From the IMG/VR virus record IMGVR_UViG_3300006734_000990: DNA of 64,000 bases; one strand, 5' to 3'. Below the pieces are notes generated by a model that saw only the letters and a program-made list of their open reading frames with translations, had not been told where the DNA came from and ran no database searches. The stretch's first letter is position 1, and each line of letters starts with the position of its first letter. The position numbers and the translations under genes were made by a program. Shown piece after piece: positions 4,280 through 61,693 of the stretch. The stretch comes from a virus. Its lineage: Duplodnaviria > Heunggongvirae > Uroviricota > Caudoviricetes.

Positions 4280-4306
4280 ATGCGAATTTCAATGATGCAA
4301 CAATAA
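4280..4306 (+). other. mini-ORF MRISMMQQ* beginning with ATGCGAATTT box in a divergent intergenic region
   Basis: Read directly; same ATGCGAATTT start as mini-ORF at 27473. Confidence 0.25.
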
Positions 4307-4443
4307 AGACGGAAACGCGGAACATATCCGTTTAATAACAGTTCATTATTCGCAACCAACGTGATGTGATAATGTCCGCAGCGCGTAACCATCCTCGTGG
4401 CACCCGCGAGGTCTACAGAGAACTTTCAAAGGAGACTTCACAG

Positions 4444-4920
4444 ATGAAGTTCAACACCACCGCATTCAGGACCACCTCGCTTATGGCAGCAGCTCTTACT
4501 GTCATGGGTACATCCGCATTTGCATGGCAGATTGATGCGCCTATCACAAAAGCCGAGGCCATGGAAAAGGCGGCTGAGCGCTTTGATAAGGCCGATATTG
4601 ACGGAGATGGTGTCTTGAGCGTCGAGGAGATGAAGGCCGGCAAGAAAGCGGGTGGTGACAAGAGTAACCGCATGAAGCCGCGCGATGTTTTCTCGAAGAT
4701 CGATGCCGACGGCTCGGGCGATTTGAGCCCGGAAGAGTTCGTCAAGGCAGCAGAGCGCATGGAGAAACACCGCAACGAGAAAGGTCATGCTGATGAGGAG
4801 GGTAAAATGAAACTGACCCCGGCAGAGCGCTTTGTTGAGCTGGATGTGGATCAGGATGGCGCGCTGAGCATCGAAGAGTTCAAGCCCGGCAAGCGCCACG
4901 GCAAGGCTGAAGACAAATAA
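4444..4920 (+). CDS. secreted EF-hand calcium-binding protein (three DxDGDG-type loops)
   Basis: AAGGAG upstream of ATG 4444; signal-peptide-like N-terminus; DIDGDGVLSVEE, DADGSGDLSPEE, DVDQDGALSIEE. Confidence 0.7.
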   Translation: MKFNTTAFRTTSLMAAALTVMGTSAFAWQIDAPITKAEAMEKAAERFDKADIDGDGVLSVEEMKAGKKAGGDKSNRMKPRDVFSKIDADGSGDLSPEEFVKAAERMEKHRNEKGHADEEGKMKLTPAERFVELDVDQDGALSIEEFKPGKRHGKAEDK

Positions 4921-4947
4921 CAGCCACAGCGGGACTACCGCACCTTG

Positions 4948-4976
4948 GGGCAGCCTTCGGGCTGCCTCTTTTTTTC
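4948..4976 (+). terminator. intrinsic terminator GGCAGCC-TTCG-GGCTGCC followed by TCTTTTTTT
   Basis: Perfect 7-bp stem, tetraloop, U-tract immediately after EF-hand gene. Confidence 0.75.
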
Positions 4977-5100
4977 GACTTTGTGAAAAATCGCACCGGC
5001 GGTATCTGGCCATTCGCAATAGAGCAAGATACATCGCTGTGAAAATATGGTATTTTCTAGATTACCAAAAAGGCGAAAAGAAGACTGAAGGAAATCATCC

Positions 5101-5646
5101 ATGGCGCAAACCGCATTCGCTAAGAAGATCTCTGGCAACGACGAGCATTTCTACTTTCAGGCTGGGGGGTATGTTCTGCTAAGGATCTCCAAGACACCCG
5201 GTGAATTCGGATATTCTGTCATGACGGTAACGACAGCGAGCTCAACAGCTGCTGCGTGCAAGGCACCGCATCTGTATGCACCTGAAATCGTTGTTGGCGG
5301 CGAGGCGGCGTCGCTCATGAATATCGACAGTGTTGAGCACTGCAACCCAACCCATGAAAGAGCATATCCGGATGCCGACAAGCTGATCTCAGCCGTATCC
5401 TCCCTGATCACGGTAGAGGAGAATGACCTGCGCAGAGATCCCGCAGGACGCCGCTATATCATCCTGAGCGGCATCACGAGCCCGGCGACAGTTCGCGCCT
5501 TCGGGAATGACATTGCAGATGTTCTTTGCCTTGAAAAGTATGTGGAGCCTTGGGTCTATTCAGAGCGACAGACCACAAGCGAAGATCTACCCGATCCTGC
5601 AAATACCCCCAAGCCGTATCGTTGCCTTGATATCTCCTGCCTCTGA
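5101..5646 (+). CDS. hypothetical protein (181 aa)
   Basis: ORF with coding bias; convergent with next gene. Confidence 0.45.
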   Translation: MAQTAFAKKISGNDEHFYFQAGGYVLLRISKTPGEFGYSVMTVTTASSTAAACKAPHLYAPEIVVGGEAASLMNIDSVEHCNPTHERAYPDADKLISAVSSLITVEENDLRRDPAGRRYIILSGITSPATVRAFGNDIADVLCLEKYVEPWVYSERQTTSEDLPDPANTPKPYRCLDISCL

Positions 5647-5661
5647 CCCCGCGGCCTGTAA

Positions 5662-6546
5662 CTATGCTGTAAGAAACATCCCGCAGGATGCAGCCACATC
5701 CCGGCCGACGCGGGGAACAATCTTTGAGCCCATCAGGGGCATAGCTCCCCCAAGCACCCTCAGAGCTTGCGCGTAGCTTGCGTCGCTGGCCTCGCGGCCG
5801 GTTCTTTCGCTGAAGCTGTTATACCTGACAAGATTCAAGCGTGTTTTCAGGGTGGAATTTTCAAGGAAGTTCCGCAGCGCGACATGATCGCAAAGCCGAT
5901 CGTTCTCTCCTTCAATGAGCGCATGGTGAATAACCACATCCCGTCCCGTCGCGGCCTGCCAATCCTCCAGGCGTGCGAGGGTGGCGTCGGGTGCATCGGC
6001 CTTTGGCAGCCAACGTTTACGGAAGGAGGGCAGGAGGGAGTAGATTGACCAGTAGAAAGTGACCGGGTGGCCCGCGAAAGACTTCACGAGGTTCACATCG
6101 CGCGCGCCAATCGGGAAGATCGAGGAGACATTGATGCGGTAATCGATGCCCCGTTCCTCCGCTGCCGTGCGGATCGGCGCGATAAACCTGTCGAACTCGT
6201 TGCAAAAGTTAGGGTTAAGCAGAGGTTCACCGCGGGCCATCATATTGACGTTCATCCGCGTGACCGGTGCCTTCAGACTGTCGTAATGCTCGATCACCTG
6301 GGAAAACTGCGCGTGATAATCCTCAATCCGCGCCTGCCCCATTTGAACTTCCTTCAACTGGGTTAGATGGCAAAACCTGCAGGCTTGATTGCAACCTGTC
6401 TGGGAGGAGAGATAGGCGATAAAATACTCGGAACTGCGCTGAACGAAACGCGCTTCAAGAGCGCCACCATCTTCGTTTTTCGCAATGAAGTTTACCGAGG
6501 CATCGATCTCAGATGCACGTCTCTGCCACTCGTATGTCATATCCAT
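5662..6546 (-). CDS. RlmN/Cfr-family radical SAM RNA methyltransferase, compact form (about 295 aa; alternative start 6630)
   Basis: SSQTGCNQACRFC (CxxxCxxC), MMARGEPLLN (RlmN GMGEPL), C-terminal NLVRYNSF...RVGRDVAASCGMF matching RlmN NLIPWNPF...RGDDIDAACGQL with the second catalytic Cys; GGAG before ATG 6546; TGCGAAAAG box at 6554-6562. Confidence 0.65.
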   Translation of the reverse strand: MDMTYEWQRRASEIDASVNFIAKNEDGGALEARFVQRSSEYFIAYLSSQTGCNQACRFCHLTQLKEVQMGQARIEDYHAQFSQVIEHYDSLKAPVTRMNVNMMARGEPLLNPNFCNEFDRFIAPIRTAAEERGIDYRINVSSIFPIGARDVNLVKSFAGHPVTFYWSIYSLLPSFRKRWLPKADAPDATLARLEDWQAATGRDVVIHHALIEGENDRLCDHVALRNFLENSTLKTRLNLVRYNSFSERTGREASDASYAQALRVLGGAMPLMGSKIVPRVGRDVAASCGMFLTA

Positions 6547-6671
6547 CTCCTGCCACAGCTTACTTTTCGCAGCTATGCCAGAGAATTTCAGATTACAAAT
6601 GCCAGCCGGTGTCTGCGGCAGTGATCGCAAACATCCCGGACCATGGAAAATTAGTAGCGCGCAGACTTTCC

Positions 6672-8190: not shown

Positions 8191-8477
8191 TGCAGAAACG
8201 ACTAGAGGCCGAATTCTTCCTCGTTCTGCTGCGTTTGCTCCACAGGCTCATCAAATATAGGGCCAACTCGTTTCGCGCGTTGTTTCCGAAATCACGACCC
8301 GGGCGCTGCAGGGCAACACCAAACTTCCGGTCCTCGCCGTCCTGAGTTCGGGTATAGGGCCCACGTAAAACGTAGGGTATTTACCATTTGCTTTAACTCG
8401 GGAAATCCTCAAAATATCTTGCACTTGAATACCCGCTTTAAAGATGCTGGTTCAACGGAAAACAGAAAAGAAGATTT

Positions 8478-9227
8478 ATGGCTGATCGAGAATATATAAA
8501 CGTTATGGGTGTCTTGGTCGCGCAGGACAGTATGAGCTCAATTGAAGTGATAACTGCAAAATTCACGTATGTATTGCTTCTGATCTTCAAGATAATTTGG
8601 GGCCTTTCCGCGATATTTTTTGTTGTGGAGTATTTCGACTTAGGTATCCCTCGGATACTCTCGGCAGGTGAGCCAAGCCCCTTCATTCTGTTTCTCTCTT
8701 TGTTTTTCTCGATAATGTACCTTTGGGCCGACGCATCTATTCGTGACAATAAATATGCCGTTCGAGTAACGCTGGATTCGGGCAGGGCATTGACCTCCCG
8801 CCAGATCAGCTTGGATCTTGCCCTTGCATACAAGAATAAACTTCAGAAGACCTTCGAACTCGGCGAGACCGGCAGTACATTCGAGCATGAAGGAACCGTT
8901 TACCATTCAAATGACATCATCACGGTTCGGACTTACAGAAGTATCCCAGAGAGATGTTTTTTGGCGACGCTGGTCTATGGTGTCGCATTCTCAATTGTGC
9001 TCTTCATGGTGGTCCAAGATGGAATGAGCGCGTCGGCGCTATTGTTTATTCCCATATTTTTTGTTCCAGCTGCATGGGCGGCAATCAATACCCTGAACGG
9101 CGATAACAAGCTGGAGGTTATATCTTCTTCTGGTAAGGGCATGGTGACCTCAAAAGTCAGCCGTATATCTGAAGATAGTGCAAATATCAGAGATTTTATC
9201 TATTCCAGCGTAGCAGTACGTTCTTAG
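8478..9227 (+). CDS. integral membrane protein in a low-GC patch
   Basis: Several hydrophobic helices; region 8200-9240 markedly AT-richer than surroundings. Confidence 0.5.
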   Translation: MADREYINVMGVLVAQDSMSSIEVITAKFTYVLLLIFKIIWGLSAIFFVVEYFDLGIPRILSAGEPSPFILFLSLFFSIMYLWADASIRDNKYAVRVTLDSGRALTSRQISLDLALAYKNKLQKTFELGETGSTFEHEGTVYHSNDIITVRTYRSIPERCFLATLVYGVAFSIVLFMVVQDGMSASALLFIPIFFVPAAWAAINTLNGDNKLEVISSSGKGMVTSKVSRISEDSANIRDFIYSSVAVRS

Positions 9228-9691
9228 GGCTCATCAGGCTCCGGCGGTTTGACTTTGCTTTCCGCCTTGTTGGCAAGACCGCGGACCTCGCCTTCAAAGT
9301 GCAAGCGGCGGACCCCTGAGAGATCCGGACAGTCCTGCACAACCCCCTCCGGGTCTAGCCCCAGCGAGATATGAGCATTGAACTCCGGGAAGGCAAAATG
9401 CGCGCCGGCCGTGACCAGCGCGCGGTGCCGCTCCTCGATCTCAGGGCAACGCATGGTCAGCACCAGGTGAGGGCCGAACCGGTCAAAGGCAAGATCCTGC
9501 GGCACGATCTCCAGGGGGTCTTCCATCGCTTGGAAGACAGGCAAGTTCCAATCGACCTCGCGCTTGGAATAGATCAGCGTCATATGCAGTTCGACTTCCC
9601 GCTCGAAGTCAAAACCCGACATCATATCGACAATCATGTCATTGTCGGTCGAGGCGAGGGGGCGTTTGATGTAGAGGGACTTCAGTTTCAT
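9224..9691 (-). CDS. 2H phosphoesterase superfamily protein (LigT / cyclic phosphodiesterase-like)
   Basis: Two H-x-(T/S)-x motifs: HMTLIY and HISLG about 80 aa apart; overlaps upstream gene by 4 nt. Confidence 0.6.
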   Translation of the reverse strand: MKLKSLYIKRPLASTDNDMIVDMMSGFDFEREVELHMTLIYSKREVDWNLPVFQAMEDPLEIVPQDLAFDRFGPHLVLTMRCPEIEERHRALVTAGAHFAFPEFNAHISLGLDPEGVVQDCPDLSGVRRLHFEGEVRGLANKAESKVKPPEPDEP

Positions 9692-11804: not shown

Positions 11805-11888
11805 GACGATGTGATCCGTTCTTAAAAGTGTTTTGCCGCAAAGCGGGCGCCTGGATTGGTCTCACCCATTAATTATGCGCATCTCTAC

Positions 11889-11926
11889 TTTTCGCAATGG
11901 TAAAAAGCCCCTATCTAAGGGGGTGA
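11889..11926 (+). promoter_or_regulatory. TTTTCGCAATG box followed by 9-codon uORF (MVKSPYLRG*) about 50 nt upstream of gene 11974
   Basis: Direct reading. Confidence 0.4.
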
Positions 11927-11973
11927 GGCAAAGCCGCATCAACCACGCTGCTGGCAATTAACAAGGAGTAGAC

Positions 11974-14020: not shown

Positions 14021-14824
14021 ATGGATTTTCGCAAGGTCATCTCACCCAAATCTCAGGCAGCTTCCGCGCGCCGGCGTGCGGCTGTCATGGCATTTCAAAA
14101 CGACACGCCTGAAGGGCAGGCGGCGACGCTACTGACTGCTGTACGCACCCTGCGCGAGAGCGGCGCCTTCTCCGACGATCCACGCTACAGCTACGACGAA
14201 TGGGCCCTCTATCGGGTCGTGCCCGAGCTGGCCATGAAACTTGATCCCAACATTGAACTGCAGGATGTCGAGAACCCGGATGAGGAAGAGCGCGTAGATC
14301 AGGTTACCTGGCTGCGCGGTGCGCCGGCAGAACGTCTTGAAAGCTCTGTGAAATCCATCATGGCAAACGCGTCTTTTTCACGGATCCGAGAAAGTGGTGA
14401 CGATTTGAACGATCTCGCGGACGCCACGTTCGGGTATAACACCTGCTACTTTTCGGTCGCTGCGGACACGGTCTTTCCGGGCAGCGCACCGTCGCGCGAA
14501 GATCTCGATACCCGTGATCCTCTGCCGGGCCAATTTGTGCTCTGCTGCCATAAGAGCGGCTATGAGCGGGTCATGAGCTACAGCGAAGACGCTGCTGAGA
14601 TCGACAAGGTCTACGACGCCCTTGTGCGCGTCACCTCTGGTGAAGAGCTTCGCGACGAGGATGCCTGGGTGCGGGAAAAGCTTTCCTGGTACCCGATGCT
14701 GAAGCAGGACGGGAAGAACGGCCGTGAGGGTCTGTTGTCAATCGAGATCCAGGATGCCTCTGGAGAAGTGCTGCGCCAGCACTCCCTTGAGCGTGAAGTT
14801 GATGAGACACCTGAGATGGCCTAA
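14021..14824 (+). CDS. hypothetical protein (267 aa)
   Basis: Long ORF, coding bias. Confidence 0.5.
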   Translation: MDFRKVISPKSQAASARRRAAVMAFQNDTPEGQAATLLTAVRTLRESGAFSDDPRYSYDEWALYRVVPELAMKLDPNIELQDVENPDEEERVDQVTWLRGAPAERLESSVKSIMANASFSRIRESGDDLNDLADATFGYNTCYFSVAADTVFPGSAPSREDLDTRDPLPGQFVLCCHKSGYERVMSYSEDAAEIDKVYDALVRVTSGEELRDEDAWVREKLSWYPMLKQDGKNGREGLLSIEIQDASGEVLRQHSLEREVDETPEMA

Positions 14825-17387: not shown

Positions 17388-17585
17388 GGGTTTTCCCTTC
17401 TCTTGTTTTGGGGACATTAGGCCGGTGGTGTGAAAAAAACTAAGCCAAACCATGCAGATACATTGTGCGGTTGATTGACATTGCGGCGCAAGCAAAACAG
17501 GATCTATACCAGAAGTTGCATAGCGGAATCTTGATGTTCTGTACTTTTCGCGGCCATCTTGGATAAACAATAACAGGTTCTCTAC

Positions 17586-19369: not shown

Positions 19370-19654
19370 TTCTGCGATCAGATCAATGCGCTGAAGATGG
19401 GAAAGCTTGGCGTTGTCGGCATTGCCGATAAGCTTGGACAGGGCAGTGATGTGCGAACGTTTTACGTCGATATCTATAATGATGCTCCTAAGCGATCAAC
19501 ATCTCGAGTTGGCCCCGTTACCCGCAGTGATCGCTGGATGATCATTGTGGCAGTTTATGCATGGAGCGGTTTGGCGTATTGGGGCCGCCGGGTTCGCTCC
19601 GACCATGTATTGGAGGTATTGCGCATACGGTTAGTTGTCAATATTTTCGCAGCG

Positions 19655-20878: not shown

Positions 20879-20994
20879 GGTACCCTTGTGATTGAATTTA
20901 GAACAGCATAACACATCGCGAAAAACGAGAGTATCAGAAATAAAGAGAGCGCCAGTTTCCCGGCGCCCCAATGTTTTTGAAGAACAGTTCAGCC

Positions 20995-21945
20995 TTACTT
21001 GGTTTTGGCTGTCGGGGTAGTCTTGCGGGGCGTTGCTTTTGCCGGGGCTTTCACCTGCTGACCTGCAGCGATCATGCCCATGGTTGCGGCATCTTTGGTT
21101 TCCTTGGCCGCAGCCGTCACGAAGACCACACTGCCACCCGCGGATGCAGCATCGCGCAGCGCTTCCATCTCATTGATCGAGGTGAAGAAGTCGAGGCCGG
21201 CGCTGGCCGACAGACCTGTGCTGCCCACGAAGGCCTGCAGAGCTTCAGCGTTGCCTTCGGCAACCTTCTTGCGGAAGGACGCATAGGCTTCGGCCTTGAT
21301 GTTCATGGCTTCGCCTTCCGCGTGCGATTTCGCAATTGAAAGTGTTTTCGCAGCTTCACCTTCGTTGATCGCCGCTTCTTTGAGGCGCTCAGATGCAATG
21401 ACGCGGTCGAAGGCCTGACGGAGTTCTTCTGAGGGCTGCGGATCATCGACGAGCACGTTCTCAATCCGAAAGCCGAAGCCGGACATCTTTTCGGTCAGAG
21501 TGCCTTCGACACCATCTTCAAAGGTATCGCGCGCCTGAAAGAGCTGATTGAACGACAGGCTCGAGGCTGTGGAACGTACCTGGTTGACGACGTAGGAGCG
21601 GATCTGGCCTTCAGGGTTGTTCAGCTTATAAAAGGCGTCCTGCGCTGTGTCTTCGTCGACGCAGAACTGGACGCGGATCGGCACCAACACGAAGGCATTG
21701 TCGGAGGACTTCACATTAACGTCCTCGGAGATCTCACGGATCTTCAACGAAAAGTTTGGCGATGCAGCCTGGAACGGCCAAGGCGCTTTGAACGACAAGC
21801 CAGACTTTCTAACCGAGGAGAACCTGCCGAAGGTGGAGATGATCTTGACGTGTTGTTGCTGCGTGATGACCACGGTTGATGCGGCCATCAATAGAAGTAC
21901 GACAGTGGCGATGGCGATATGGACCGCGGTGAGTGTGATAAACAT
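20995..21945 (-). CDS. SPFH / Band 7 (stomatin-prohibitin) family membrane protein
   Basis: N-terminal TM helix then ISTFGRF...KAPWPF... typical SPFH core, Ala/Glu-rich C-terminal helices. Confidence 0.7.
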   Translation of the reverse strand: MFITLTAVHIAIATVVLLLMAASTVVITQQQHVKIISTFGRFSSVRKSGLSFKAPWPFQAASPNFSLKIREISEDVNVKSSDNAFVLVPIRVQFCVDEDTAQDAFYKLNNPEGQIRSYVVNQVRSTASSLSFNQLFQARDTFEDGVEGTLTEKMSGFGFRIENVLVDDPQPSEELRQAFDRVIASERLKEAAINEGEAAKTLSIAKSHAEGEAMNIKAEAYASFRKKVAEGNAEALQAFVGSTGLSASAGLDFFTSINEMEALRDAASAGGSVVFVTAAAKETKDAATMGMIAAGQQVKAPAKATPRKTTPTAKTK

Positions 21946-22017: not shown

Positions 22018-22030
22018 TTTTTCGCAAAAG
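22018..22030 (+). promoter_or_regulatory. TTTTTCGCAAAAG box between SPFH gene and thrS-like gene
   Basis: Direct reading. Confidence 0.35.
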
Positions 22031-23479: not shown

Positions 23480-23569
23480 ATGCGAAAAACCCGTGGTCAA
23501 TATAATATCACTCCGTATTTTCGTGTTTTCCGAGGATCATGGCGTCAACCGATCAGGAGTATGACATGA
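23480..23569 (+). other. uORF (29 codons, MRKTRGQYN...) starting with ATGCGAAAAAC box; its TGA overlaps main-gene ATG (ATGA)
   Basis: Direct reading. Confidence 0.4.
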
Positions 23570-28955: not shown

Positions 28956-29180
28956 GATACCCCAAATCGATAGCGTGAACCCGTAAGTGATTCGCTTAAA
29001 TGTATTGGTTTTCGCAACTGCTGTCACGCCGCAGCTCAGCTTACCGAGCAGTTCAGTTCGCTCGTTTGGAGATTCTCTTGTCTCAATCAGTTGCATCTAG
29101 TGTGACGGCAAAATTGCTGCTTGTACCGACTGAAAACCCTGCGTGACATGACCTCCATTGGATCAAAAAAGGAGTGAAGC

Positions 29181-30676: not shown

Positions 30677-30891
30677 ATCACTGTTTTTTCGCATTGCCTT
30701 TCTGAAACGGATTTCCTAACATCCCCGCATGACACAGGATAAACCCATCTGCGCGATCAATTGGTGGCTGCCTCTCTGAGGCGGCCCAATTCCTGTGACC
30801 AACCCCAGGACCGGCCGCGTGATGCGGCTTGTGATGTCCTGAAAGACCCCTCCCATCATGCGGCTGTCCTCTCTCCATAAAGGACAAGACC

Positions 30892-32489: not shown

Positions 32490-33302
32490 TCACCGCAGGC
32501 TTTTTGAGCCTGTTGTTTCGGCGTGGTCAGAAATAACTTCCTCAGCGGCCCATCCGGACATTGGGAACTCGACGCAGCCAGTTGCTGCTATCATGCAGCA
32601 AAGCCGGAAAATCTCTTCTTGATCCGAGTCCGACATATCTGCCATGTCCTTGGCGGTGGTGGACGTGTCGATGCCGATGCGCGCGCAGGCTTCCTCCATC
32701 CTGGCCAGCGCATAGGATCGCGCTTCCAGAACCGTTTGTCCTGTAATGGCCATCACCGGAATACAGAGATCTACAGCCTCACCCGGCAGGTTCCTCGTAA
32801 AATTGAAAAGTGCGAAAGGACGCACATCCCCTTTCGATACATCACCCACCACGCCCTCGTTCATAATCGATTGCAAGCACATGGAGTTCAAAATCAGGAC
32901 GGCTGCCTCATCCGCCTCCTCGCGGGTTGTATGGGGCATGCTCAGAGGGGTGCCCATTACGTCGGAGACGCCGGGGGGCACGTTTTTCAGCAAAAGATCC
33001 GCGTACCAGCCTCTCGAGGTGCGGTAGACAACCAATGCGCGGAAGTTATCAACGACAATAAACCGCTGCGTGGCCATCGCCCGCGTCGTGTTGACCTTCA
33101 TCTGAATATTCGGGTCTCGGATAGCTTTTCGGGCATAGGCGCGGGCCTCGGGCAACAGGCGCTTAAGGCGGGCTCGCCCGTCTTTCATTTGCTTGTCGGT
33201 GTAGCGCATCTTCCCTCCAGTTTCACTCGTATCGATATAGGCAGATGAAACCCGTAATGTTAAATGGTAATCCTGTACCGTTTTTCGCATGGCATAATTC
33301 AT
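32490..33302 (-). CDS. hypothetical protein (270 aa); N-terminus MNYAMRKTV coded by ATGCGAAAAAC box
   Basis: ORF; start ambiguous. Confidence 0.45.
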   Translation of the reverse strand: MNYAMRKTVQDYHLTLRVSSAYIDTSETGGKMRYTDKQMKDGRARLKRLLPEARAYARKAIRDPNIQMKVNTTRAMATQRFIVVDNFRALVVYRTSRGWYADLLLKNVPPGVSDVMGTPLSMPHTTREEADEAAVLILNSMCLQSIMNEGVVGDVSKGDVRPFALFNFTRNLPGEAVDLCIPVMAITGQTVLEARSYALARMEEACARIGIDTSTTAKDMADMSDSDQEEIFRLCCMIAATGCVEFPMSGWAAEEVISDHAETTGSKSLR

Positions 33303-48826: not shown

Positions 48827-49846
48827 ATGGATCTTACAGCAGAACATATTCTCAAAATGGGGAACCAAGAGGCTTCCAAGGTTTTCACTGGCGATGAGAA
48901 GGCTGACAAAAAGTCTTTTCGCACGCTTGCCGCGCGTTGGCACCCCGACCACTGCCAAGACCCCAAAGCGGCTGAAGTCTTCGCAAAGCTGATTTCACTT
49001 CGTGACGCCGCGCGCGGCGCCCCGCGGCTACCCGGGCAGCAATATATCTTCAGACAAGCCGGCGGCGGCGGACGCCAGGCCATGCGTTACCTGTCGCGCC
49101 ACCATATTGATACCGGCATCCTTCTGGTGGGTCCGGTCAGTATTGCTCAAGTCTATGAGTCCGACCTTGCTGATATCGCCGCGGCGGAGCTGCGCACCTT
49201 GGCGGGTTTCAAATTCGCGGATGCAAAGATGGAAGCGCAGATGCGGATGTTTCTGCCGCGCCATAAATCCCGTGTCGATCTGGCAGATGGGAAAGTGCTG
49301 ATCACCCATGCGCGGGCGCCCGGTGATGTTCTTCTGGCCGATCTGATTGCCGAGGATGGCCCTATGCCGCCCGAGCATGCGGCTTGGCTCTGCTCTGGGC
49401 TGATGAACGTCGCGGCCTGGCTGACCTGGGCGGGCAAGGTACACGGCGCCATTGGCCCCGAGGCAGTCATGGTTGACCCCGAAACCCATTCGGTACGGCT
49501 GGTCGCCGGCTGGGGGTTTGCGACCGATGTCGGAACCCGGCCCGCGATGCTGCCCAACCGCAGCTTGCAAATTGCCCCACAGATGGCCGTAAAGGGGCAG
49601 GTGGCTGATCCTTCGCTGGATCTCGAGTTGATCCGGCGTACCGTCTGTGAGGCATTGGGTGCGGCGTCCTTGAGCGGGTTGAGTGGGCTCGGCCTACCAG
49701 ATCCTGTCCGGAACTGGTTGATGCTGCCGCCTGGCAAGGACGGCATTGTTGATTACGCGAACTGGCAGAAGGCGCTGAGCGATGGATGGGGGGCGCGGCG
49801 CTTCGCCAAATACACCGGCGACGGGGTAGGGGTCTACGCTTCCTGA
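48827..49846 (+). CDS. J-domain protein fused to a protein-kinase-like (probably pseudokinase) domain
   Basis: FRTLAARWHPDHCQDPKAAEVFAKLISLRDAA = J-domain helix II/III with HPD; later VHGAIGPEAVMVDPETHSVRLVAGWGFAT parallels kinase catalytic loop HRDLKPENILLD...DFG with Asp replaced by Ala. Confidence 0.55.
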   Translation: MDLTAEHILKMGNQEASKVFTGDEKADKKSFRTLAARWHPDHCQDPKAAEVFAKLISLRDAARGAPRLPGQQYIFRQAGGGGRQAMRYLSRHHIDTGILLVGPVSIAQVYESDLADIAAAELRTLAGFKFADAKMEAQMRMFLPRHKSRVDLADGKVLITHARAPGDVLLADLIAEDGPMPPEHAAWLCSGLMNVAAWLTWAGKVHGAIGPEAVMVDPETHSVRLVAGWGFATDVGTRPAMLPNRSLQIAPQMAVKGQVADPSLDLELIRRTVCEALGAASLSGLSGLGLPDPVRNWLMLPPGKDGIVDYANWQKALSDGWGARRFAKYTGDGVGVYAS

Positions 49847-49924: not shown

Positions 49925-50848
49925 ATGGGAAACGGACGTTGGGATAGCTCGGCATGGGCCGGCTACACTGCTCAGAACACCGCGGGCAAAACACAGAGCC
50001 AGATCTTCACATCTCGGCAGATGAAGGATGAATATAACCCGGCAAAGATCGAATTTCGCGAAAGCCGCGACAGCGCTGACAACCCTATGTCGACGCCGAT
50101 TGTTTTGGCTTCGGACGTGACAGGTTCGATGGGTATGATCGCCGAAAAGCTGATGCGCGATGGTTTGAATACTTTGGCCACCCAGATCTATGACCGCAAA
50201 CCGGTGACCGACCCGCATATCATGATCATGGGTGTGGGTGACGCCAAATCCGACCGGGCGCCTTTGCAGGTCACTCAGTTCGAGGCGGACATTCGTGTTG
50301 CTGAACAGGCCCGTGAGCTTTGGCTTGAAGGCGGCGGCGGCGGCAATGGCGGTGAATCCTACTCGGCTGCCCATCTTTTCGCAGCGACAAAGGTGCGTGC
50401 AGACGCAATCGAGAAACGTGGCCGTAAGGGCTATCTCTTCACCATTGGTGATGAACCCATCCACGATGGGATGACCAAGTCGGAGATTGAGCGGGTTCTG
50501 GGCATTACTGTCGAAGCAGACCTGTCGGCAATGGACATCATCCGTATGGTTCAACGCGACTGGGAAGTCTTCCACATCGCTCTGGTCAATGAAGGCTACT
50601 GCAACTGGGGCCAGTCGCGCGATCAGGTTCTCGCTTCCTGGCGCAAAATCCTGCCCGAGCGCACCATTCAGCTTGAGGATGTCAATGCTCTGGCCGAGAC
50701 CGTCGTGTCGCTGATCCAGGTGACCGAGGGCGCCAATGCGGGCGACGTGGCTGCCAGCTGGTCGGGCTCGACTGCGTTGACCGTGGCCAATGCCCTGAAA
50801 GGCGTGCCAGCCAAGACCGGCCAGTCGCGCGGCGTCCAGCGCTTGTAG
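49925..50848 (+). CDS. von Willebrand factor A domain protein (TerY-like), MIDAS DxTGS
   Basis: PIVLASDVTGSMG MIDAS; AAGGAG before ATG. Confidence 0.65.
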   Translation: MGNGRWDSSAWAGYTAQNTAGKTQSQIFTSRQMKDEYNPAKIEFRESRDSADNPMSTPIVLASDVTGSMGMIAEKLMRDGLNTLATQIYDRKPVTDPHIMIMGVGDAKSDRAPLQVTQFEADIRVAEQARELWLEGGGGGNGGESYSAAHLFAATKVRADAIEKRGRKGYLFTIGDEPIHDGMTKSEIERVLGITVEADLSAMDIIRMVQRDWEVFHIALVNEGYCNWGQSRDQVLASWRKILPERTIQLEDVNALAETVVSLIQVTEGANAGDVAASWSGSTALTVANALKGVPAKTGQSRGVQRL

Positions 50849-51400: not shown

Positions 51401-51943
51401 ATGAGCAAATGCCCTACCTGCGGTGCAGTATCTTCTGAAGAGAACCAGGCCCCACAAAACAGCGAAGCCGAAATCGTTCTGCGCATCCCCGAGCGGCACT
51501 TCCCGCTCATGCGCAAGACCTTTCGCGAGATGGAAGTGAAGTTGGGTATGCACGGGCTTGGCGAGCTGGCAAATACGCTCAAACCCTATGGGGCCTTATT
51601 TGACAAAGACTTCGACAAGCTGCGCTATTTCAATGATGGCGCATTGGGAATGGTGATGCATGGGATCACGGCCGGCTATCCGGCCGCGGTTCGGATTGCT
51701 GAAGGAAACGACAAGCTCTTCGCTTCCCACGAGCGCGGTAAACGCGTTGCGGTTCATGTCGACTTCACCTTCCCTGACGGTCAGGTCAAACACATGGCGG
51801 TTGCGGAAAGCGCGACGCCTGAGGCGGCCGCCTGGTTCACCGATTACATCAATGATCTCTGCGACAGGCTTTCGCCGCAAAACCCCCAGGGAAACTCAGA
51901 TCAAAGATCGGATATCCAGGAGAACAATGATGCGGGGTTCTGA
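51401..51943 (+). CDS. hypothetical protein with N-terminal CPxCG zinc ribbon (180 aa)
   Basis: KCPTCGA; overlaps next gene start. Confidence 0.5.
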   Translation: MSKCPTCGAVSSEENQAPQNSEAEIVLRIPERHFPLMRKTFREMEVKLGMHGLGELANTLKPYGALFDKDFDKLRYFNDGALGMVMHGITAGYPAAVRIAEGNDKLFASHERGKRVAVHVDFTFPDGQVKHMAVAESATPEAAAWFTDYINDLCDRLSPQNPQGNSDQRSDIQENNDAGF

Positions 51944-53745: not shown

Positions 53746-53922
53746 ATGGCGATGGCGTCCGTTGCTCTCATCTCAAGTGATGCCGCCAGTATATGGCTGC
53801 TTTGCGATAATCCAGACCTTGGATGAACTTCATCCACGTATAAGCGAAAGTTTACCGCGACGGCAGGTTGCTACGCGAATAAAGGCGCATACATAAAGAT
53901 TAACGCAATAGGGTTTTTCGCA

Positions 53923-54342
53923 ATGCCAAGACAGCACGAGTACGCGATCGGGACAGAACAGATGCTTGAGAAGGAGGCTGAACGCGCGCGGCGTTGGAAG
54001 AAAAGAGGGGATGCAATCGAGTACCACCTCATCCGTGGACCGGTTGGGCTTGTGTTACAGGCGGCCTCTCTTATCGTGTTCGTCGCCTGTTTCTATTTCA
54101 TCCAGCTCGACGCACAGAAAGAGCGCTTTGCGGAGCGTGAAACGGCTTTGCTGGAAATTGAAGCGGCTTGCATGGAGCGGGGCGGCAGCTTTGCCTTTAG
54201 CCGGGTCAGCGATGATGTCGGGTATTGCTATGAAAAAGGCGAAAAGGTGATCTTTGAGGTTGAAGGATTGGCAGGCTCGCCGAGTGAATTCGCCATCGCA
54301 GATCCACGCTCTCAGAAAGACAGCAGACAATCGGAGATTTGA
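53923..54342 (+). CDS. hypothetical protein with one TM segment (139 aa); ATG directly preceded by GGGTTTTTCGCA box
   Basis: Direct reading. Confidence 0.5.
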   Translation: MPRQHEYAIGTEQMLEKEAERARRWKKRGDAIEYHLIRGPVGLVLQAASLIVFVACFYFIQLDAQKERFAERETALLEIEAACMERGGSFAFSRVSDDVGYCYEKGEKVIFEVEGLAGSPSEFAIADPRSQKDSRQSEI

Positions 54343-54576
54343 AAATAGCTTGCGGGACGGCATCGCGCTCATGGAGGCATCTTTGAGCGAAATCACCCTC
54401 AGCGTCGAGGAGGAGGTCACTACCTCTGCACAGGCGCTTTCGATGCAGCTGGGCCGCATGGTGAAGATCCCCGCTTGATCGGGGGTCTTTAGGCCAAAAC
54501 CACACATTGCGAAAATAATACTTGCGTTGTGCAAATTCATATGCAAGAACTTCAGTGTAATCAAAGGAAGAAAACC

Positions 54577-54658: not shown

Positions 54659-54683
54659 ACCCGCCCCTGAGGCGGGTTTTTTT
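54659..54683 (+). terminator. CCCGCC-CCTGA-GGCGGG hairpin followed by TTTTTTT immediately upstream of tRNA genes
   Basis: Perfect 6-bp GC stem with U7. Confidence 0.75.
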
Positions 54684-54693: not shown

Positions 54694-54769
54694 GTCTCCT
54701 TAGTTCACCCGGTTAGAACAGCAGCCTTTCAAGCAGCAGAAACGAGTTCGAGACTCGTAGGAGATGCCA
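54694..54769 (+). tRNA. tRNA-Glu (anticodon UUC)-like, 76 nt, encoded CCA, G1-U72 wobble and an A-A mismatch in anticodon stem
   Basis: Manual fold: acceptor GTCTCCT/AGGAGAT, D-arm GTTC-ACCCGGTTA-GAAC (G18G19), anticodon loop CTTTCAA, 4-nt variable loop, T-arm ACGAG-TTCGAGA-CTCGT. Confidence 0.65.
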
Positions 54770-54782
54770 AAATCACCACCAC

Positions 54783-54858
54783 GTCCGCATAGTTCAATTG
54801 GTTAGAATAGTGCCCTCTCAAGGCACAGACGCGAGTTCAATCCTCGCTGCGGATGCCA
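54783..54858 (+). tRNA. tRNA-Glu (anticodon CUC), 76 nt, encoded CCA, G1-U72 wobble
   Basis: Manual fold: acceptor GTCCGCA/TGCGGAT, D-arm GTTC-AATTGGTTA-GAAT, anticodon stem GTGCC/GGCAC loop CTCTCAA, 4-nt variable, T-arm GCGAG-TTCAATC-CTCGC. Confidence 0.7.
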
Positions 54859-54874: not shown

Positions 54875-55225
54875 ATGTTGTCACTGTCGCGCTTTTTTAA
54901 ACGTCGCCCCAAGGCACCTGAGCTGCCTCGCTTTCCAGACCGGGCCGAGGCGGCTGCATGGATGCGCAGCAAGATTGTTCAGACGCGACAGAGGTCACCT
55001 CACGAGGCCCAGCGCCTCTTTGATCCGACATCCGGAGATTACCTGCCCGCATCCGTCCATACAGGATCGTATTTCGATGAAGACGCTCTAGTGGCATATC
55101 GAGCCCTCAAAGCCGAGTTCCCAGATCTTGTTGCGGCCTCATTCAATGAGCCAATGGCATTCTGCGTCTCGCGCATCGCGGACCCGGAAGATCTTCATGC
55201 TCATGCACATCGAATTGGCGTCTGA
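54875..55225 (+). CDS. hypothetical protein (116 aa)
   Basis: ORF between tRNAs and GluRS-like gene. Confidence 0.4.
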   Translation: MLSLSRFFKRRPKAPELPRFPDRAEAAAWMRSKIVQTRQRSPHEAQRLFDPTSGDYLPASVHTGSYFDEDALVAYRALKAEFPDLVAASFNEPMAFCVSRIADPEDLHAHAHRIGV

Positions 55226-55238
55226 AAGGATTTTCACA

Positions 55239-56093
55239 ATGACCTACACAACCCGAGTAGCCCCGTCTCCAACTGGCGACTTTCACATCGGCACAGCCCG
55301 CACCGCCTATTTCAACTGGCTCGCCGCGCGCGCCTCTGGCGGTCGCTTCCTCCTGCGCATCGATGACACCGATCTCGCGCGCAACAACGATGCCTCGATC
55401 AGCGTGATCCATGATTGCCTCGATTGGTTGGGGCTTACGCCTGACGCCGTCTACCGTCAGTCGCACCGGCGCGACATCTATGATGCCGCGGCTACAAAGC
55501 TTCTTGATGCAGGGCTGGCAGTCCGTGCCGACAATGGTGCTGTGCTGATGAAGGGTGGGGCAGCCGCGCCGTGGCACGATCTGATTTCCGGCGACCAGCT
55601 GCCCAGCTCCAAGGCGCATGACCTGGCGCGCGATCAGGTGCTCATCAAAGCTGACGGTATGCCGGTCTATCATTTCGCCTCAGTGGTCGACGATATCGAT
55701 CTGCGCGTGAACCTGGTGATCCGGGGCATGGACCATGTGACCAACACTTTCCGTCATGCGGGGATCTACGCTGCCCTCGGTGCGCCAATGCCGGATTTTG
55801 CCCATGTCGGCCTGATCACCATGGGTGGCAAGAAGATGTCCAAACGCGACGCCGCGGCAAGCCTTCTGGGGTACCGCGATGACGGTGTCGATCCCGATGC
55901 CATGCTGAACTATCTGCTGCGCGTCGGCTGGGGCCCGCGCCAGGATGACAAGTCGATGAAGATCATCGATCGGGCTCGGGCGGTTGATCTGTTTCTGGAT
56001 CACGGCAAGATGCGGTCCTCGCCGGCCGCGATGGATCTGGCAAAACTTGCCAGCTTCGATCGGAAGTACAAGCACATGAAACGGCCTGCATAG
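55239..56093 (+). CDS. glutamyl-tRNA synthetase catalytic domain protein lacking the anticodon-binding domain (GluQRS-like architecture, GluRS-like sequence), 284 aa
   Basis: APSPTGDFHIGTARTA (HIGH), VYHFASVVDDIDLRVNLVIRGMDH, GKKMSKRD (KMSKS), LNYLLRVGW - co-linear with E. coli GltX residues 1 to about 300; stops shortly after. Confidence 0.75.
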   Translation: MTYTTRVAPSPTGDFHIGTARTAYFNWLAARASGGRFLLRIDDTDLARNNDASISVIHDCLDWLGLTPDAVYRQSHRRDIYDAAATKLLDAGLAVRADNGAVLMKGGAAAPWHDLISGDQLPSSKAHDLARDQVLIKADGMPVYHFASVVDDIDLRVNLVIRGMDHVTNTFRHAGIYAALGAPMPDFAHVGLITMGGKKMSKRDAAASLLGYRDDGVDPDAMLNYLLRVGWGPRQDDKSMKIIDRARAVDLFLDHGKMRSSPAAMDLAKLASFDRKYKHMKRPA

Positions 56094-56121: not shown

Positions 56122-56129
56122 TTTTCGCA
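56122..56129 (+). promoter_or_regulatory. TTATTTTCGCA box directly abutting ATG of 56130 gene
   Basis: Direct reading. Confidence 0.4.
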
Positions 56130-58732: not shown

Positions 58733-58747
58733 ATGCGAAAACAATAG
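58733..58747 (+). other. mini-ORF MRKQ* (ATGCGAAAACAATAG) immediately upstream of SD of gene 58758
   Basis: Direct reading. Confidence 0.25.
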
Positions 58748-59118: not shown

Positions 59119-59178
59119 TTTTTCGCAATGTCGATGGACACTAGTAGCAAAGTAATACCAAGCAGGATAAATCAATGA
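59119..59178 (+). other. TTTTTCGCA box plus 16-codon uORF (MSMDTSSKVIPSRINQ*) whose TGA overlaps ATG 59175 (ATGA)
   Basis: Direct reading. Confidence 0.4.
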
Positions 59179-60068
59179 CCAAACGAAACTTCCCTACAGC
59201 CACCATCGCTTGGGGCGCGCTCGCCACACTTTATGCTGCCACCGCAGTTCTCTCTATGTCCGACAGGTCCGCGGCGGAGGACAGCCTGAACGGCATGCTG
59301 GATCTTCCAGCTAAACACTATGCGGCCGAAGTCTTGCTCGGTGCCTCGGATGGCATGAAAGCGAATGGATGGTCGAACTTTGGTATCGAAGAACGCCTCG
59401 CCGCCGTAAAGGCAGCCACTCATGAACCTCTGCGCCGTCACATGACCGCTATATATGAGAACGCCTACTCTCAGGGGATCAACGGCGAATGGGACGAGGC
59501 GGCATTGGATGGATATCTCGAAGTAGTCGAGTTACCAAAGAGCGATATTTTCTGGCTCAACCAATCCACCCTCAAGGGGGATGAGAACATTAATCCTGAA
59601 GCCCTGAATGCCAAAATTGAAGCTGATTATGGGGCTCGGTGGGATGATGTTGGCAAGCATTTCCGCGAAGGTCTCGAAGGTATCATCCATACAACCGTTA
59701 ATTCAGTTGAAATTGCGTTTTCAAATGTGCCTGACAGTTCGAAACGGACCAATGGTGAAATGCAGCCACCGGTGTATAGCGCGGCAAAGGAATTTGGCTT
59801 TATGACCACTGGGCCAAATGAGCCCAATGCCACTGTCACTTACAGCCAGGCGGATGCTATCGAAGCGCGAAAATCTGTTGAGCATTTGGCTGTTAAGCCT
59901 ACCGAACGTGTCGAGGTGGAGTTGGTGCGTGAGAAGAGAGCTATACATTTCAGCCCTCACCAGATCGCTGTGTTTGCACCCCTCAATCAGCATGTGGAAG
60001 ATCCCTTTACAGCGGAACGAGTTGCCGAGCAGGAGCTGTCCAACGACAACCCTGATCAGCCTAACTGA
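59175..60068 (+). CDS. hypothetical protein with hydrophobic N-terminus (297 aa)
   Basis: ORF, coding bias. Confidence 0.5.
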   Translation: MTKRNFPTATIAWGALATLYAATAVLSMSDRSAAEDSLNGMLDLPAKHYAAEVLLGASDGMKANGWSNFGIEERLAAVKAATHEPLRRHMTAIYENAYSQGINGEWDEAALDGYLEVVELPKSDIFWLNQSTLKGDENINPEALNAKIEADYGARWDDVGKHFREGLEGIIHTTVNSVEIAFSNVPDSSKRTNGEMQPPVYSAAKEFGFMTTGPNEPNATVTYSQADAIEARKSVEHLAVKPTERVEVELVREKRAIHFSPHQIAVFAPLNQHVEDPFTAERVAEQELSNDNPDQPN

Positions 60069-60074
60069 TCTTTA

Positions 60075-60536
60075 TCAACACCGCTCCGCGAGGGTCATGA
60101 CCCAAACGTCATCGACCTTCGCGATGCCCATCCATAGCAAGTTCGGTCGGAGTATATTCTCGCGGTGACCTGGCGATTCCATCCAGGTCTGAATAATGTT
60201 GCCGGTGTTTAACGCTTTGCCCTTGGCGATATTTTCCGCCAACGCGCGTGAGCACCCAGCATCCCGCAGCCGCTCTGCCGCTGAAGAGCCATCCGTTCCG
60301 GTATGGCTGAAAGTACCATGAAGCGCCATGTCGGTCGCGGCGCGCAGGGCAGCCCGTTCCGCCTGTTGTCCGGCAGCAAGTGGTTGCAGACCAAAGGCGC
60401 GCCTTTGTGCATTCGCATCTTCAATGACCCTTACCAGTCCTGAGGTGGAAATCTCAGGCGCAACATAGCGGACAGGTGCAGAGGTACATGCTGAAAGAAT
60501 AGACCCGCATAGAATGGTCGTTACTGTTTTTCGCAT
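60075..60536 (-). CDS. CAP/SCP/PR-1-like domain lipoprotein
   Basis: Lipobox LSAC; HTGTDG ... GENI ... WMESPGHRENIL ... SCP-type motifs; N-terminus MRKTV coded by ATGCGAAAAAC box. Confidence 0.6.
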   Translation of the reverse strand: MRKTVTTILCGSILSACTSAPVRYVAPEISTSGLVRVIEDANAQRRAFGLQPLAAGQQAERAALRAATDMALHGTFSHTGTDGSSAAERLRDAGCSRALAENIAKGKALNTGNIIQTWMESPGHRENILRPNLLWMGIAKVDDVWVMTLAERC

Positions 60537-60746
60537 TGAGCAATCACTCCTTGGCTTTCATCTTCGCAATAGGCATCGAAGGTCTGCGCCGATGCGACAT
60601 ATGCTCTGTTTTTGCGACGCCCCGACCGGCACAGCAGGGGATTATTAAAAATAATCGCGTTTTTCGCAAATCGCTTGCATTCCCCTAAATTCTTCAGCTA
60701 TCCATAGCAAGAGCATTTTTCGCAACTCGCACCGAAAGGTTGGACC
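60524..60746. promoter_or_regulatory. divergent intergenic region with five GTTTTTCGCA(A/T)-type boxes (60526, 60572 partial, 60608 variant, 60659, 60716)
   Basis: Direct reading. Confidence 0.45.
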
Positions 60747-61019
60747 ATGACCCCTTCGCCAGGCGCTACACTTAAAGTTCCCGCCGCACTTCTTGTGGCG
60801 AATATTGCGCTGACCATGCCCGCGATCAAGGCGCTGGGCGGCAATGGTCGCGGCTGGATCGTGGCAATGCAGGATTACGGCCGGGCCATGCTGCCGTCTC
60901 AAGATATGCTGTTCCAGTCGACGGCCTATAGCCTGGTACTGACGGCCTCTGTGACAGTTTCAGCAATTCTCATCGGTAAAATGGTCATGCGCGGCCTTTT
61001 GATCGCAACCAATAGCTGA
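60747..61019 (+). CDS. small membrane protein (90 aa)
   Basis: Two hydrophobic helices. Confidence 0.4.
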   Translation: MTPSPGATLKVPAALLVANIALTMPAIKALGGNGRGWIVAMQDYGRAMLPSQDMLFQSTAYSLVLTASVTVSAILIGKMVMRGLLIATNS

Positions 61020-61075
61020 GGTCAGCAGCGCGCACCGCATTTCATTCCAGATACACCCCCTTAAAGGACTACGAC

Positions 61076-61693
61076 ATGAGTAAGATCGAGAATTTCAACA
61101 AACTGAGCCCTGCAGAAACCGAACGTCTGGCAATGCTTTCCGAAGAAGCAGGCGAGGTTGTTATGGCCGCCACGCAGATGCTTAGGGACGGTCCTTATTC
61201 TGAGAACATGGAAGGGGCGCTGGACGACAATGTCGGCGAGCTCGGACGTGAGGTCGCCGACCTCCTGGCCGTCGCGGACTTCATGGAGGGCGACATCAGC
61301 ATCGAAGCCTTTGACAACTACTTTGCGAAAAACGAATCCAACTATAATAGCCCGTATTCAGATGCGCTGAAGGAAATGTCTGCCCTTGGGAATACGATCG
61401 TGGTCAATGGTGTAGATCTCGCTGAAATGGAACAGCTTCACATTCTGTCGACCAGGGCTGCAAAGATCGTTCAGACCGTGGGTAAGATCCTGCGCCATGG
61501 CTATGAGAGCTTTCACCCCGATCAGCCCGAGCAGAGCAATAGGCAGCTTCTGACGTTGGACCTTTTCAATTTCTGGATCGCAGTTCACTACCTCCCTGAC
61601 GGCTTCTTTGAAGATGTGCCTGATGCCCATGAAGAGATAATGGCACGTAAAATGCGCTACATGCATCATCAGACGTTGGAGGTGGTGGCGTGA
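61076..61693 (+). CDS. MazG-like nucleoside triphosphate pyrophosphohydrolase family protein
   Basis: ERLAMLSEEAGEVV and LGREVADLLAVADFM resemble the two MazG EExxE / hxxL(G/A)D helices. Confidence 0.55.
   Translation: MSKIENFNKLSPAETERLAMLSEEAGEVVMAATQMLRDGPYSENMEGALDDNVGELGREVADLLAVADFMEGDISIEAFDNYFAKNESNYNSPYSDALKEMSALGNTIVVNGVDLAEMEQLHILSTRAAKIVQTVGKILRHGYESFHPDQPEQSNRQLLTLDLFNFWIAVHYLPDGFFEDVPDAHEEIMARKMRYMHHQTLEVVA

Follow-up and report, generated by a model that had tools for sequence, protein, structure and literature searches.

A stretch of 64,000 nucleotides from the Caudoviricetes record IMGVR_UViG_3300006734_000990, analyzed over its whole length and called the window here, carries 75 genes on a codon-usage-based map (83% coding) and, dispersed among them, 32 copies of the 8-mer TTTTCGCA, which we call the box. 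The window is most likely part of a Mar_Mega_1-like marine megaphage. A metagenomic contig of 656,090 bp encodes a 100%-identical copy of its largest protein, and one of 642 kb a 75% relative; the related loci with which the window was compared (designated L001, L003, and so on; about 150 kb) derive from marine metagenomes. Mar_Mega_1, the closest genome in the literature, is a marine megaphage of 656,628 bp with 50 tRNAs and several aminoacyl-tRNA synthetase genes, and the paper describing it mentions neither promoters nor motifs (PMC9723777). Megablast of 20 kb of the window found no match among GenBank phages or PLSDB plasmids, and tblastn against phages gave a weak partial match only. The original prediction, made from the letters of the window without database searches, had suggested a comparison with Rhodobacterales regulons; nothing ties the window to Rhodobacterales, and no evidence for such a regulon was found.

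Most open reading frames (ORFs) of the window belong to no Pfam family. Those that can be recognized include three genes of aminoacyl-tRNA synthetase type (a ThrRS core, a Trp/Tyr-type enzyme, and a GluRS-like protein), accompanied by two tRNAs, and genes for PTH2, adenylosuccinate synthetase, Acb1, HipBA, an NrtR-type regulator, an RTX protein, and a DNA methylase; no structural genes are present in the window. Acb1, encoded on the minus strand at 9224-9691 (Pfam E = 8e-17), belongs to a family of phosphodiesterases directed against the cyclic oligonucleotide-based antiphage signaling system, and its presence supports a phage origin of the window.

Sequence and position of the box

An unbiased k-mer survey returned TTTTCGCA as the most over-represented 8-mer of the window, with 32 copies against 3.7 expected. 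The related word TTTCGCAA occurs 19 times, compared with 2.7 +/- 1.6 in dinucleotide-preserving shuffles, none of which (0/100) reached 19, and the 13-mer GTTTTTCGCAATG, allowing up to two mismatches, occurs 20 times against 1.9 expected. The over-representation that the original prediction described is thus real, and at each of the 20 positions that it listed, the box itself or a variant with one mismatch lies no more than about 3 nt away. Three of them (17540, 20925, and 43486) are one-mismatch TTTTCGCG variants, and two further variants that it had noted, at 4280 and 27473, are weak AAATTCGCAT look-alikes ("ATGCGAATTT") that we excluded from the count. About a dozen copies had been missed, among them those at 886, 6477, 14026, 19644, 30686, 40019, and 40634, as well as 45508, 45678, 45705, and 45863.

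The box is an asymmetric, sharply defined, stand-alone 10-mer. Every single-substitution neighbor of TTTTCGCA has at most 7 copies in the window, and the symmetry partner inverted about its center, TTTTGCGA, has just 4. In 75 pooled non-redundant copies from the window and its relatives, information is limited to (T)TTTTCGCA(A), and no second conserved position was found within 50 nt on either side. A palindrome or second half-site was accordingly rejected, given the scarcity of TTTTGCGA and flanks without information. A purine directly follows the box in 22 of the 32 window copies, the strand split is mildly in favor of plus (23 plus, 9 minus), and the spacings of tandem copies (18, 27, 56, 86, 131, and 133 bp) show no pattern of helical phasing. 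A full-text literature search for the sequence words of the box returned primers and unrelated matches only. The sequence and its use in an uncultivated megaphage family appear to be undescribed so far; as a dispersed, replicon-specific cis-regulatory word, the box is a new sequence in a familiar category.

The copies are concentrated between genes, at a density of 1.90/kb in intergenic DNA (23 copies in 12.1 kb) versus 0.17/kb in coding DNA, and the intergenic count compares with 1.1 expected from intergenic composition (z = 20). Equal frequency in coding DNA, which the original prediction had named as the observation that would overturn it, was therefore not seen. Its statement that nearly all copies are intergenic or at starts was roughly right, in that 23 of 32 are intergenic and several others lie within the first 150 nt of ORFs. 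Only two other kinds of word are strongly enriched in intergenic DNA, the Shine-Dalgarno sequence AGGAG and one local repeat cluster. Of the 14 divergent intergenic regions, 9 contain a box, versus none of 8 convergent ones (3.7 expected, P = 0.025), the empty convergent gaps including ones of 1033 bp and 326 bp. A part in intrinsic termination was rejected on this absence and on the lack of any hairpin tied to the box. Some regulatory regions contain two or three copies (43323/43454, 45678/45705/45863, and 60528/60661/60717). The distance to the start codon is about 0 to 110 nt, many copies lying at 40 to 55 nt, and is alike for boxes in forward and in reverse orientation with respect to the gene; the box often adjoins the ribosome-binding site or falls in the spacer of sigma70-like promoters.

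Copies within genes are also in excess. In the window, L013, and L014 together there are 18 against 2.5 expected by codon shuffling; 13 are antisense, where 1.2 are expected (P ~5e-10), and 5 are sense, where 1.3 are expected. All six in-gene copies of L014 are antisense, and their orientation tracks the gene strand and not the replicon strand. Mixed orientation together with antisense enrichment in genes is unusual for a promoter or an operator, and would be of wider interest if these features reflect programmed antisense transcription.

Conservation of the box across related loci

Purifying selection maintains the box across a phage family that ranges from 48% to 62% G+C. The window from 45.3 to 64 kb was aligned with the syntenic locus L001 over the whole region, which gave 79% identity in coding and 72% in intergenic DNA; all nine alignable intergenic boxes are identical at 8 of 8 positions, while their flanks are 47 to 90% identical (p ~1e-10). 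Ahead of the genes at 59175 and 60747, the boxes stand as islands of conservation in divergent spacers. In two distant relatives, whose marker protein (the 851-aa PcfJ-like protein) is 41-42% identical to that of the window, TTTTCGCA is again the most enriched word: 14 copies against 0.73 expected in L013 (62% G+C), and 10 against 0.92 in L014 (48% G+C). Enrichment was seen in the window, L001, L003, L008, L013, and L014; L004 and L015, which encode more distant homologs of the marker protein and show no synteny, lack it. All five genomes that could be compared (window, L001, L003, L013, and L014) have a forward box 38 to 54 nt ahead of the marker gene, and four of the five have a reverse box 16 to 21 nt ahead of the gene that follows the marker gene. 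A cis-acting element at the DNA level in gene 5' regions, as originally proposed, is what these comparisons support.

The alternative that the box acts in RNA, as a translational element, had been raised because of its frequent fusion to start codons; it might then be a start-codon context, with parallels in RegA-type operators or in the start-associated sequences known from mycobacteriophages. An ATG directly follows 7 of the 32 window boxes, where 0.64 would be expected, and many copies lie in leaders beside the ribosome-binding site. Two fused start codons proved to be genuine. The synonymous substitution pattern relative to L003 begins at the ATG at 53923, the first 11 codons differing mainly at third positions, and at 60536 the MRK encoded by ATGCGAAAAAC is the n-region of a lipoprotein signal peptide and aligns with the L001 ortholog. 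Two other proposals did not hold: relatives have AAC or ACG in place of the ATG at 56130, and a 100%-identical database protein begins 14 codons downstream, at the true ATG (56172) that the box precedes by 42 nt; the upstream ORF proposed at 59128 is not conserved. The ATG follows 2 of 17 boxes in L001 and 2 of 11 in L003, both close relatives, is lost at orthologous sites there, and follows none of 24 boxes in the more distant L013 and L014, so the fusion is a preference of one lineage and not part of the element. Boxes lie anywhere from 0 to more than 100 nt from the start codon, some are antisense to the genes that contain them, and both orientations are conserved, which would require mRNAs to carry two complementary sequences; an RNA-level role is thus highly improbable.

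Next to one of these boxes, that at 11889, a 9-codon ORF (11897-11925; MVKSPYLRG, then a stop) overlaps the hairpin CCCCTATCTAAGGGG. L006 and L010 retain it, which is uninformative because these loci are about 90% identical to the window there. The palindrome ATGCGCAT, enriched in pooled L006, L008, L009, L010, and L012 (18 versus 3.4), adjoins the same box at window positions 11873-11880.

The box might instead serve a transaction of the DNA itself, as a site for a nucleoid-organizing, partition, or replication protein or as a linker that favors modular recombination, its intergenic bias arising simply from poor tolerance in coding sequence. Such a function, which appears not to depend on orientation, would suit the excess of in-gene copies and the mild plus-strand excess alongside the polar word GGGNAGGG described below. 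The relatives are, moreover, mosaic, with blocks of 90% identity beside blocks of 52%. The mosaic breakpoints (e.g., 14893 and 7357) do not coincide with boxes, however, and the orientation of in-gene copies in L014 follows the gene and not the replicon. The constrained distance to start codons, and the contrast between divergent and convergent gaps, the two long convergent ones included, argue for a function in 5' regions, and we consider a non-transcriptional role improbable.

The box could also be the site of a global factor encoded by the host and exploited by the phage. The window yielded no phage regulator, and some boxes occupy the position of an UP element or class I activator site, 2 to 6 nt 5' of a -35-like TTGAC or TTGTA. 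Identity of the 8-mer in relatives of 48%, 56%, and 62% G+C, which probably infect different hosts, speaks against this, as does the outcome of the full-text search, and to our knowledge the box matches no consensus of a bacterial regulator. A host factor therefore seems quite improbable.

Promoter or operator

Between co-directional genes, 8 independent boxes are forward and 11 reverse (p = 0.65 against 1:1), which agrees with the earlier observation that the box occurs in both orientations relative to neighboring genes. The forward sites cluster 22 to 54 nt ahead of the ATG, with a fairly tight mode at 38 to 54 nt. All boxes face outward to their genes in the divergent region 45635-45908, in its L001 ortholog, and in L014 9733-10001.

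No fixed -35/-10 geometry was found, neither TTGACA nor TAnnnT occurring at a constant offset from the box. Canonical sigma70 promoters are not enriched in the window (7 found, 11 expected), and TTGAC is not enriched in its intergenic DNA. The box as -35 (TTGCGA) or -10 element of a sigma70 promoter was rejected for want of a consistent partner hexamer, and a -35 (AAC) plus -10 (CGT) pair of the extracytoplasmic function (ECF) type because the 75 sites show no partner at fixed spacing; a bipartite promoter of either kind also fails on orientation to the gene served. A MotA-like -30 box was rejected because forward boxes lie too near the start codons.

Among the five best sigma70-like predictions, the box is at -29 to -14 in four, in either orientation. 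It lies in the spacer at 886, 23481, 45678, and L001 14448, just 5' of the -35 at 19644, 22019, and L008 14863, and between the -10 and the ribosome-binding site at 60717; a conserved TTGCAT-18-TATCCA separates the boxes at 60661 and 60717. The thrS region is the most telling case. The window, L008, and L011 all have a sigma70-like promoter, TTGACC-17-TATGTA/TACATA, upstream of thrS at a conserved position with respect to the leader ATG, and the box shifts relative to this promoter, lying inside the spacer in the window and, inverted, upstream of the -35 in L008 and L011.

We favor, at a probability of about 45%, the reading that the box is the operator of a global DNA-binding regulator encoded by the replicon. 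The original prediction had offered a DNA-binding-protein site or an element-specific promoter; these are still the two best readings, with the operator preferred. It is preferred because the orientation of the box does not track the gene, because the thrS box moves relative to a conserved promoter, and because the copies lie in divergent and not in convergent regions. The presence of several copies per regulatory region, the conservation of all nine alignable boxes, and the lack of a partner at fixed spacing support it. A single sequence-specific protein, most probably encoded by the megaphage, would recognize (T)TTTTCGCA(A) and co-ordinately control many transcription units of accessory or early type. 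It would read TTGCG through the major groove and the A/T tract through the minor groove, and would bind as a single unit rather than as a symmetric dimer. Bound in or beside core promoters (in the -35/-10 spacer, just upstream of the -35, or in the early transcribed region by the ribosome-binding site), it might block or modulate RNA polymerase through occlusion or as a roadblock, either of which is independent of site orientation and so fits the mixed orientation. Occupancy would be raised where copies stand in tandem, 27 or 56 bp apart.

The main competing possibility, which we regard as unlikely, is a single-element promoter, -10-like or initiator-proximal and without a -35, for a megaphage sigma-like factor with host RNA polymerase or for a phage polymerase. 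Transcripts would then start a few bases past CGCA(A), and about half of the copies would drive antisense or outward RNA, perhaps in early-gene shut-off. An invariant 8-mer without a partner element, as in the T4 late promoter TATAAATA, and deep conservation at very different G+C content are what a site of the core transcription machinery would show. The spacing of forward sites, the outward-facing boxes of the divergent regions, the purine after the box, the lack of enrichment of canonical sigma70 promoters, and the selection of in-gene copies on the antisense strand all point the same way. Against it, the orientation test fails, and the conserved reverse sites at 58734, 22019, and 54508 would yield nothing but transcripts antisense to the upstream gene at its 3' end. 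The boxes at 58734, 53915, and 60528 cannot be promoters of the adjoining gene, because they lie within the transcribed leader or at the start codon and leave no leader. At thrS there is a separate conserved promoter relative to which the box moves, and no ECF-like pair occurs at fixed spacing. The supplementary table for Mar_Mega_1 does list an ECF-type sigma factor, SLAVMIC_00410 (Phyre2 confidence, 99.9%), which is not linked to the box (PMC9723777).

A more elaborate version, in which a megaphage-specific promoter is seeded at gene 3' ends and antisense in genes and so combines gene activation with a genome-wide program of antisense silencing, strikes us as improbable; if true, it would amount to a temporal shut-off written into the sequence of a phage of about 650 kb.

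Several points weigh against an operator. The window contains no plausible DNA-binding protein linked to the box. A core invariant at 8 of 8 positions, without dyad or repeat partner, is more typical of sigma factor or RNA polymerase elements, and the antisense bias within genes needs an extra assumption, such as avoidance of U-tracts in mRNA. Convincing sigma70-like core promoters stand beside only a minority of boxes, and the forward mode before the ATG would suit a promoter too. The window and the related loci are, in addition, a limited part of a larger genome.

Candidates for a cognate regulator were considered in turn. The 90-aa protein behind the triple-box region was rejected, as its sequence looks like that of a membrane protein, and other box neighbors are acidic ORFans with no DNA-binding features evident by eye. 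HipB and NrtR, though present in the window, were rejected as well, since both are expected to bind palindromic sites. In L013, positions 3596-6236 encode three paralogs of 245-309 aa, all of them with a tandem pair of OmpR-type winged-helix (Trans_reg_C) domains and none with a receiver domain; boxes flank the group, one at 5297 and one at 6280, and a Mu-transposase/TniB pair is nearby. These could be box readers in L013. Neither the window nor any of the other loci encodes a homolog.

The box resembles several known systems in part. The stoperators of Cluster A mycobacteriophages are non-palindromic sites of about 13 bp; those of L5, bound by the repressor gp71, keep one orientation relative to transcription. 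Like them, the box is asymmetric and dispersed in dozens of copies in short intergenic gaps, including those between cotranscribed genes, but its orientation is mixed, its sequence unrelated, and its in-gene copies antisense-enriched; one phage protein blocking transcription, as at stoperators, is for the box a candidate parallel only. The T4 late promoter is read by gp55, and other single-element phage promoters are those of the phiKZ or AR9 non-virion polymerase. With T4-type late promoters the box shares an invariant word of 8 to 10 bp, the lack of a -35 partner, conservation in divergent relatives, and a location tens of bases before starts, but such promoters face their genes, whereas about half of the boxes face away and some overlap the ribosome-binding site or start codon. 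KorA and KorB of IncP plasmids bind as dimers to palindromic operators, which stand at many promoters of the same replicon; there too a dozen or more identical sites occupy variable positions relative to core promoters and serve a regulator encoded by the replicon, as is proposed here, but the box lacks dyad symmetry. The early promoter motif of Mimivirus, AAAATTGA, is strictly oriented and positioned relative to the genes of a eukaryotic virus. Like the box, it is a short invariant word before a large fraction of the genes of a giant viral genome, found through intergenic over-representation, but the box is mixed in orientation and accompanied by bacterial translation signals (AGGAG). Each of these four systems has a defining feature that the box lacks, and it should not be assigned to any of them. 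With TTGCGA and then AAAA(C), the box also recalls an OmpR/PhoB-type half-site (some 6 to 7 specific base pairs, then an A/T tract) in the layout of a single pho-box half-site, but without the 10- to 11-bp direct repeats; the likeness is one of resemblance only.

The box precedes about a third of the genes in this region and would define a regulon of roughly every third transcription unit. Megaphages of at least 650 kb, with roughly 1000 genes, are known only from metagenomes. Given its conservation across base compositions, the box can be used to recognize fragments of this phage family, and as bait in vitro for its regulator or sigma factor without a cultured host.

Box copies and other features of the window

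The individual copies are listed in Table 1. At 22019 the box has the same place and orientation in L008 although the flanks do not align.

Table 1. Copies of the box in the window and two one-mismatch variants; forward and reverse are relative to the adjacent gene
Feature	Position	Strand	Context
Box	886..893	-	GTTTTTCGCAT; divergent 496-938; in spacer of TTGACA-17-TAGATA facing gene at 939
Box	4081..4088	-	In 5' part of N6-methylase ORF 3519-4241; inverted weaker copy TATTTCGCAATG at 4098-4106
Box	6477..6484	+	Perfect 13-mer GTTTTTCGCAATG, 62 nt into radical-SAM ORF 5662-6540, antisense
Box	6564..6571	+	Reverse, 23 nt upstream of ATG 6540 (minus-strand gene), 14 nt before AGGAG
Box	11889..11896	+	Divergent 11805-11973; kept in L006/L010 (~90-92% identical to window there)
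Box	14026..14033	+	Codons 2-5 of gene at 14021 (MDFRK...), sense
Box	19644..19651	+	Between two minus-strand genes, reverse; on gene strand, 2 nt upstream of TTGACA
Box	21345..21352	+	Antisense in Band7 gene 20995-21945; weaker copy 18 nt upstream (TTTCGCA, 21328-21334)
Box	22019..22026	+	Between ThrRS and Band7 genes (both minus), reverse, 73 nt upstream of Band7 ATG
Box	23481..23488	-	In 17-nt spacer of TTGACC-17-TATGTA, 16 nt upstream of Thr-rich thrS leader peptide
Box	29009..29016	+	83 nt into ORF 28062-29096 (minus), antisense, facing divergent gene at 29182
Box	30686..30693	+	Forward, 198 nt upstream of Trp/Tyr-type synthetase gene at 30892, 20 nt past terminator-like hairpin
Box	33282..33289	+	Divergent 33210-33375; minus strand reads ATGCGAAAAAC
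Box	40019..40026	-	Reverse, 39 nt past stop of gene 39536-39979
Box	40634..40641	+	Forward, 49 nt upstream of ATG 40691
Box	43323..43330	+	First of two in divergent 43145-43595 (PTH2 gene / gene at 43596)
Box	43454..43461	+	Second in 43145-43595; then TTTTCGCG variant at 43486-43493
Box	45508..45515	+	122 nt into gene 45062-45634, antisense; 8/8 in L001
Box	45678..45685	-	Forward, 43 nt upstream of ATG 45634; 8/8 in L001, flanks 70% identical
Box	45705..45712	-	Tandem, 27 nt upstream of 45678 box; conserved in L001
Box	45863..45870	+	Forward, 38 nt upstream of ATG 45909, 17 nt past TTGACA; conserved in L001
Box	48916..48923	+	In gene, sense, TCTTTTCGCAC; unchanged in L001, where the coding sequence around it is conserved; possibly non-functional
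Box	50376..50383	+	In gene, sense; possibly non-functional
Box	53915..53922	+	Perfect 13-mer GTTTTTCGCAATG; fills AGGG-to-ATG gap of gene 53923-54342; conserved in L003
Box	54508..54515	-	Reverse, past hairpin 3' of gene 53923-54342, 186 nt upstream of tRNA-Glu pair; in L001, L003
Box	56122..56129	+	42 nt upstream of start 56172 of 851-aa PcfJ-like gene; forward box kept in L001, L003, L013, L014
Box	58734..58741	-	Reverse, 30-nt operon gap, 4 nt before AGGAG, 16 nt before ATG 58758; L001, L003, L014
Box	59120..59127	+	Forward, 47 nt upstream of ATG 59175; conservation island in divergent spacer
Box	60528..60535	+	Overlaps true start codon of CAP-domain lipoprotein gene (minus: ATGCGAAAAAC = MRK)
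Box	60661..60668	+	Upstream member of 56-nt-spaced pair before gene 60747; 8/8 in L001, L003, flanks 55%
Box	60717..60724	+	Downstream member of pair, 22 nt before ATG 60747
Box	61324..61331	-	In gene 61076-61693, antisense (codons A-K-N); in L001, L003
Variant	17545..17552	+	One mismatch, TTTTCGCG
Variant	20917..20924	-	One mismatch, GTTTTTCGCGATG

The thrS gene (22050-23297) encodes a ThrRS catalytic core that matches E. coli ThrRS residues 230-616 with E = 9e-121. Its leader, on the minus strand at 23298-23475, contains an ORF, MMNMIASTTTTTTTHPGRSVVV followed by a stop, with seven consecutive Thr codons; then come an intrinsic terminator, CCCCGCCACTGACGCGGGG with a T-run, and the ribosome-binding site and ATG of the ThrRS core. 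The predicted fold of the leader has z = -4.7, and its ~180 nt are almost unchanged in L008 and L011, with ~88% identity in the surrounding region. A search of Rfam families gave no match for the leader. Judged by this arrangement, it is probably a leader-peptide attenuator before a phage-encoded threonyl-tRNA synthetase.

A pair of tRNA-Glu genes (anticodons UUC and CUC) occupies 54694-54858, directly preceded by a terminator-like hairpin at 54659-54677 and followed by a truncated GluRS-like gene at 55128-56093. The latter encodes the catalytic domain only (~285-320 aa), and we take it to be GluQ-RS-like. The protein encoded at 51660-53207 is a divergent adenylosuccinate-synthetase-like protein whose PHROGs family label is of PurZ type; because this PurA-like protein best matches ordinary PurA structures and not solved PurZ, we make no claim of a modified genome.

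Between 560 and 830, in the intergenic region 496-938, about 10 iteron-like repeats, GTTACG(C)/GTAACG in both orientations, flank an AT-rich run at ~634-653 (ATGATATATATATTTTAT). GTTACGC ranks second in enrichment among intergenic 7-mers (8 versus 0.87), and the cluster could be a replication origin or a regulator-binding array. The word GGGNAGGG, known in E. coli as the FtsK-orienting polar sequence (KOPS), is enriched in the window (19 versus 8.6) and polar (16 plus, 3 minus); GGGCAGGG is split 10 to 0 between the strands, and cumulative GC skew rises through the whole window. Taken together, these features suggest that the phage genome has a polar word related to replication or to a translocase.

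Three stretches of 0.7 to 1.0 kb each (8191-9223, 26369-27179, and 39980-40690) have no convincing ORF and no Rfam match, and may hold small genes or non-coding RNAs. L004, a 1.8-Mb contig of 47% G+C in which the box is not enriched, has enriched repeated words of its own, e.g., TCGTCTTG (12 versus 0.6), and carries a tandem array of at least 10 paralogs (~680-790 aa) of the PcfJ-like 851-aa protein.

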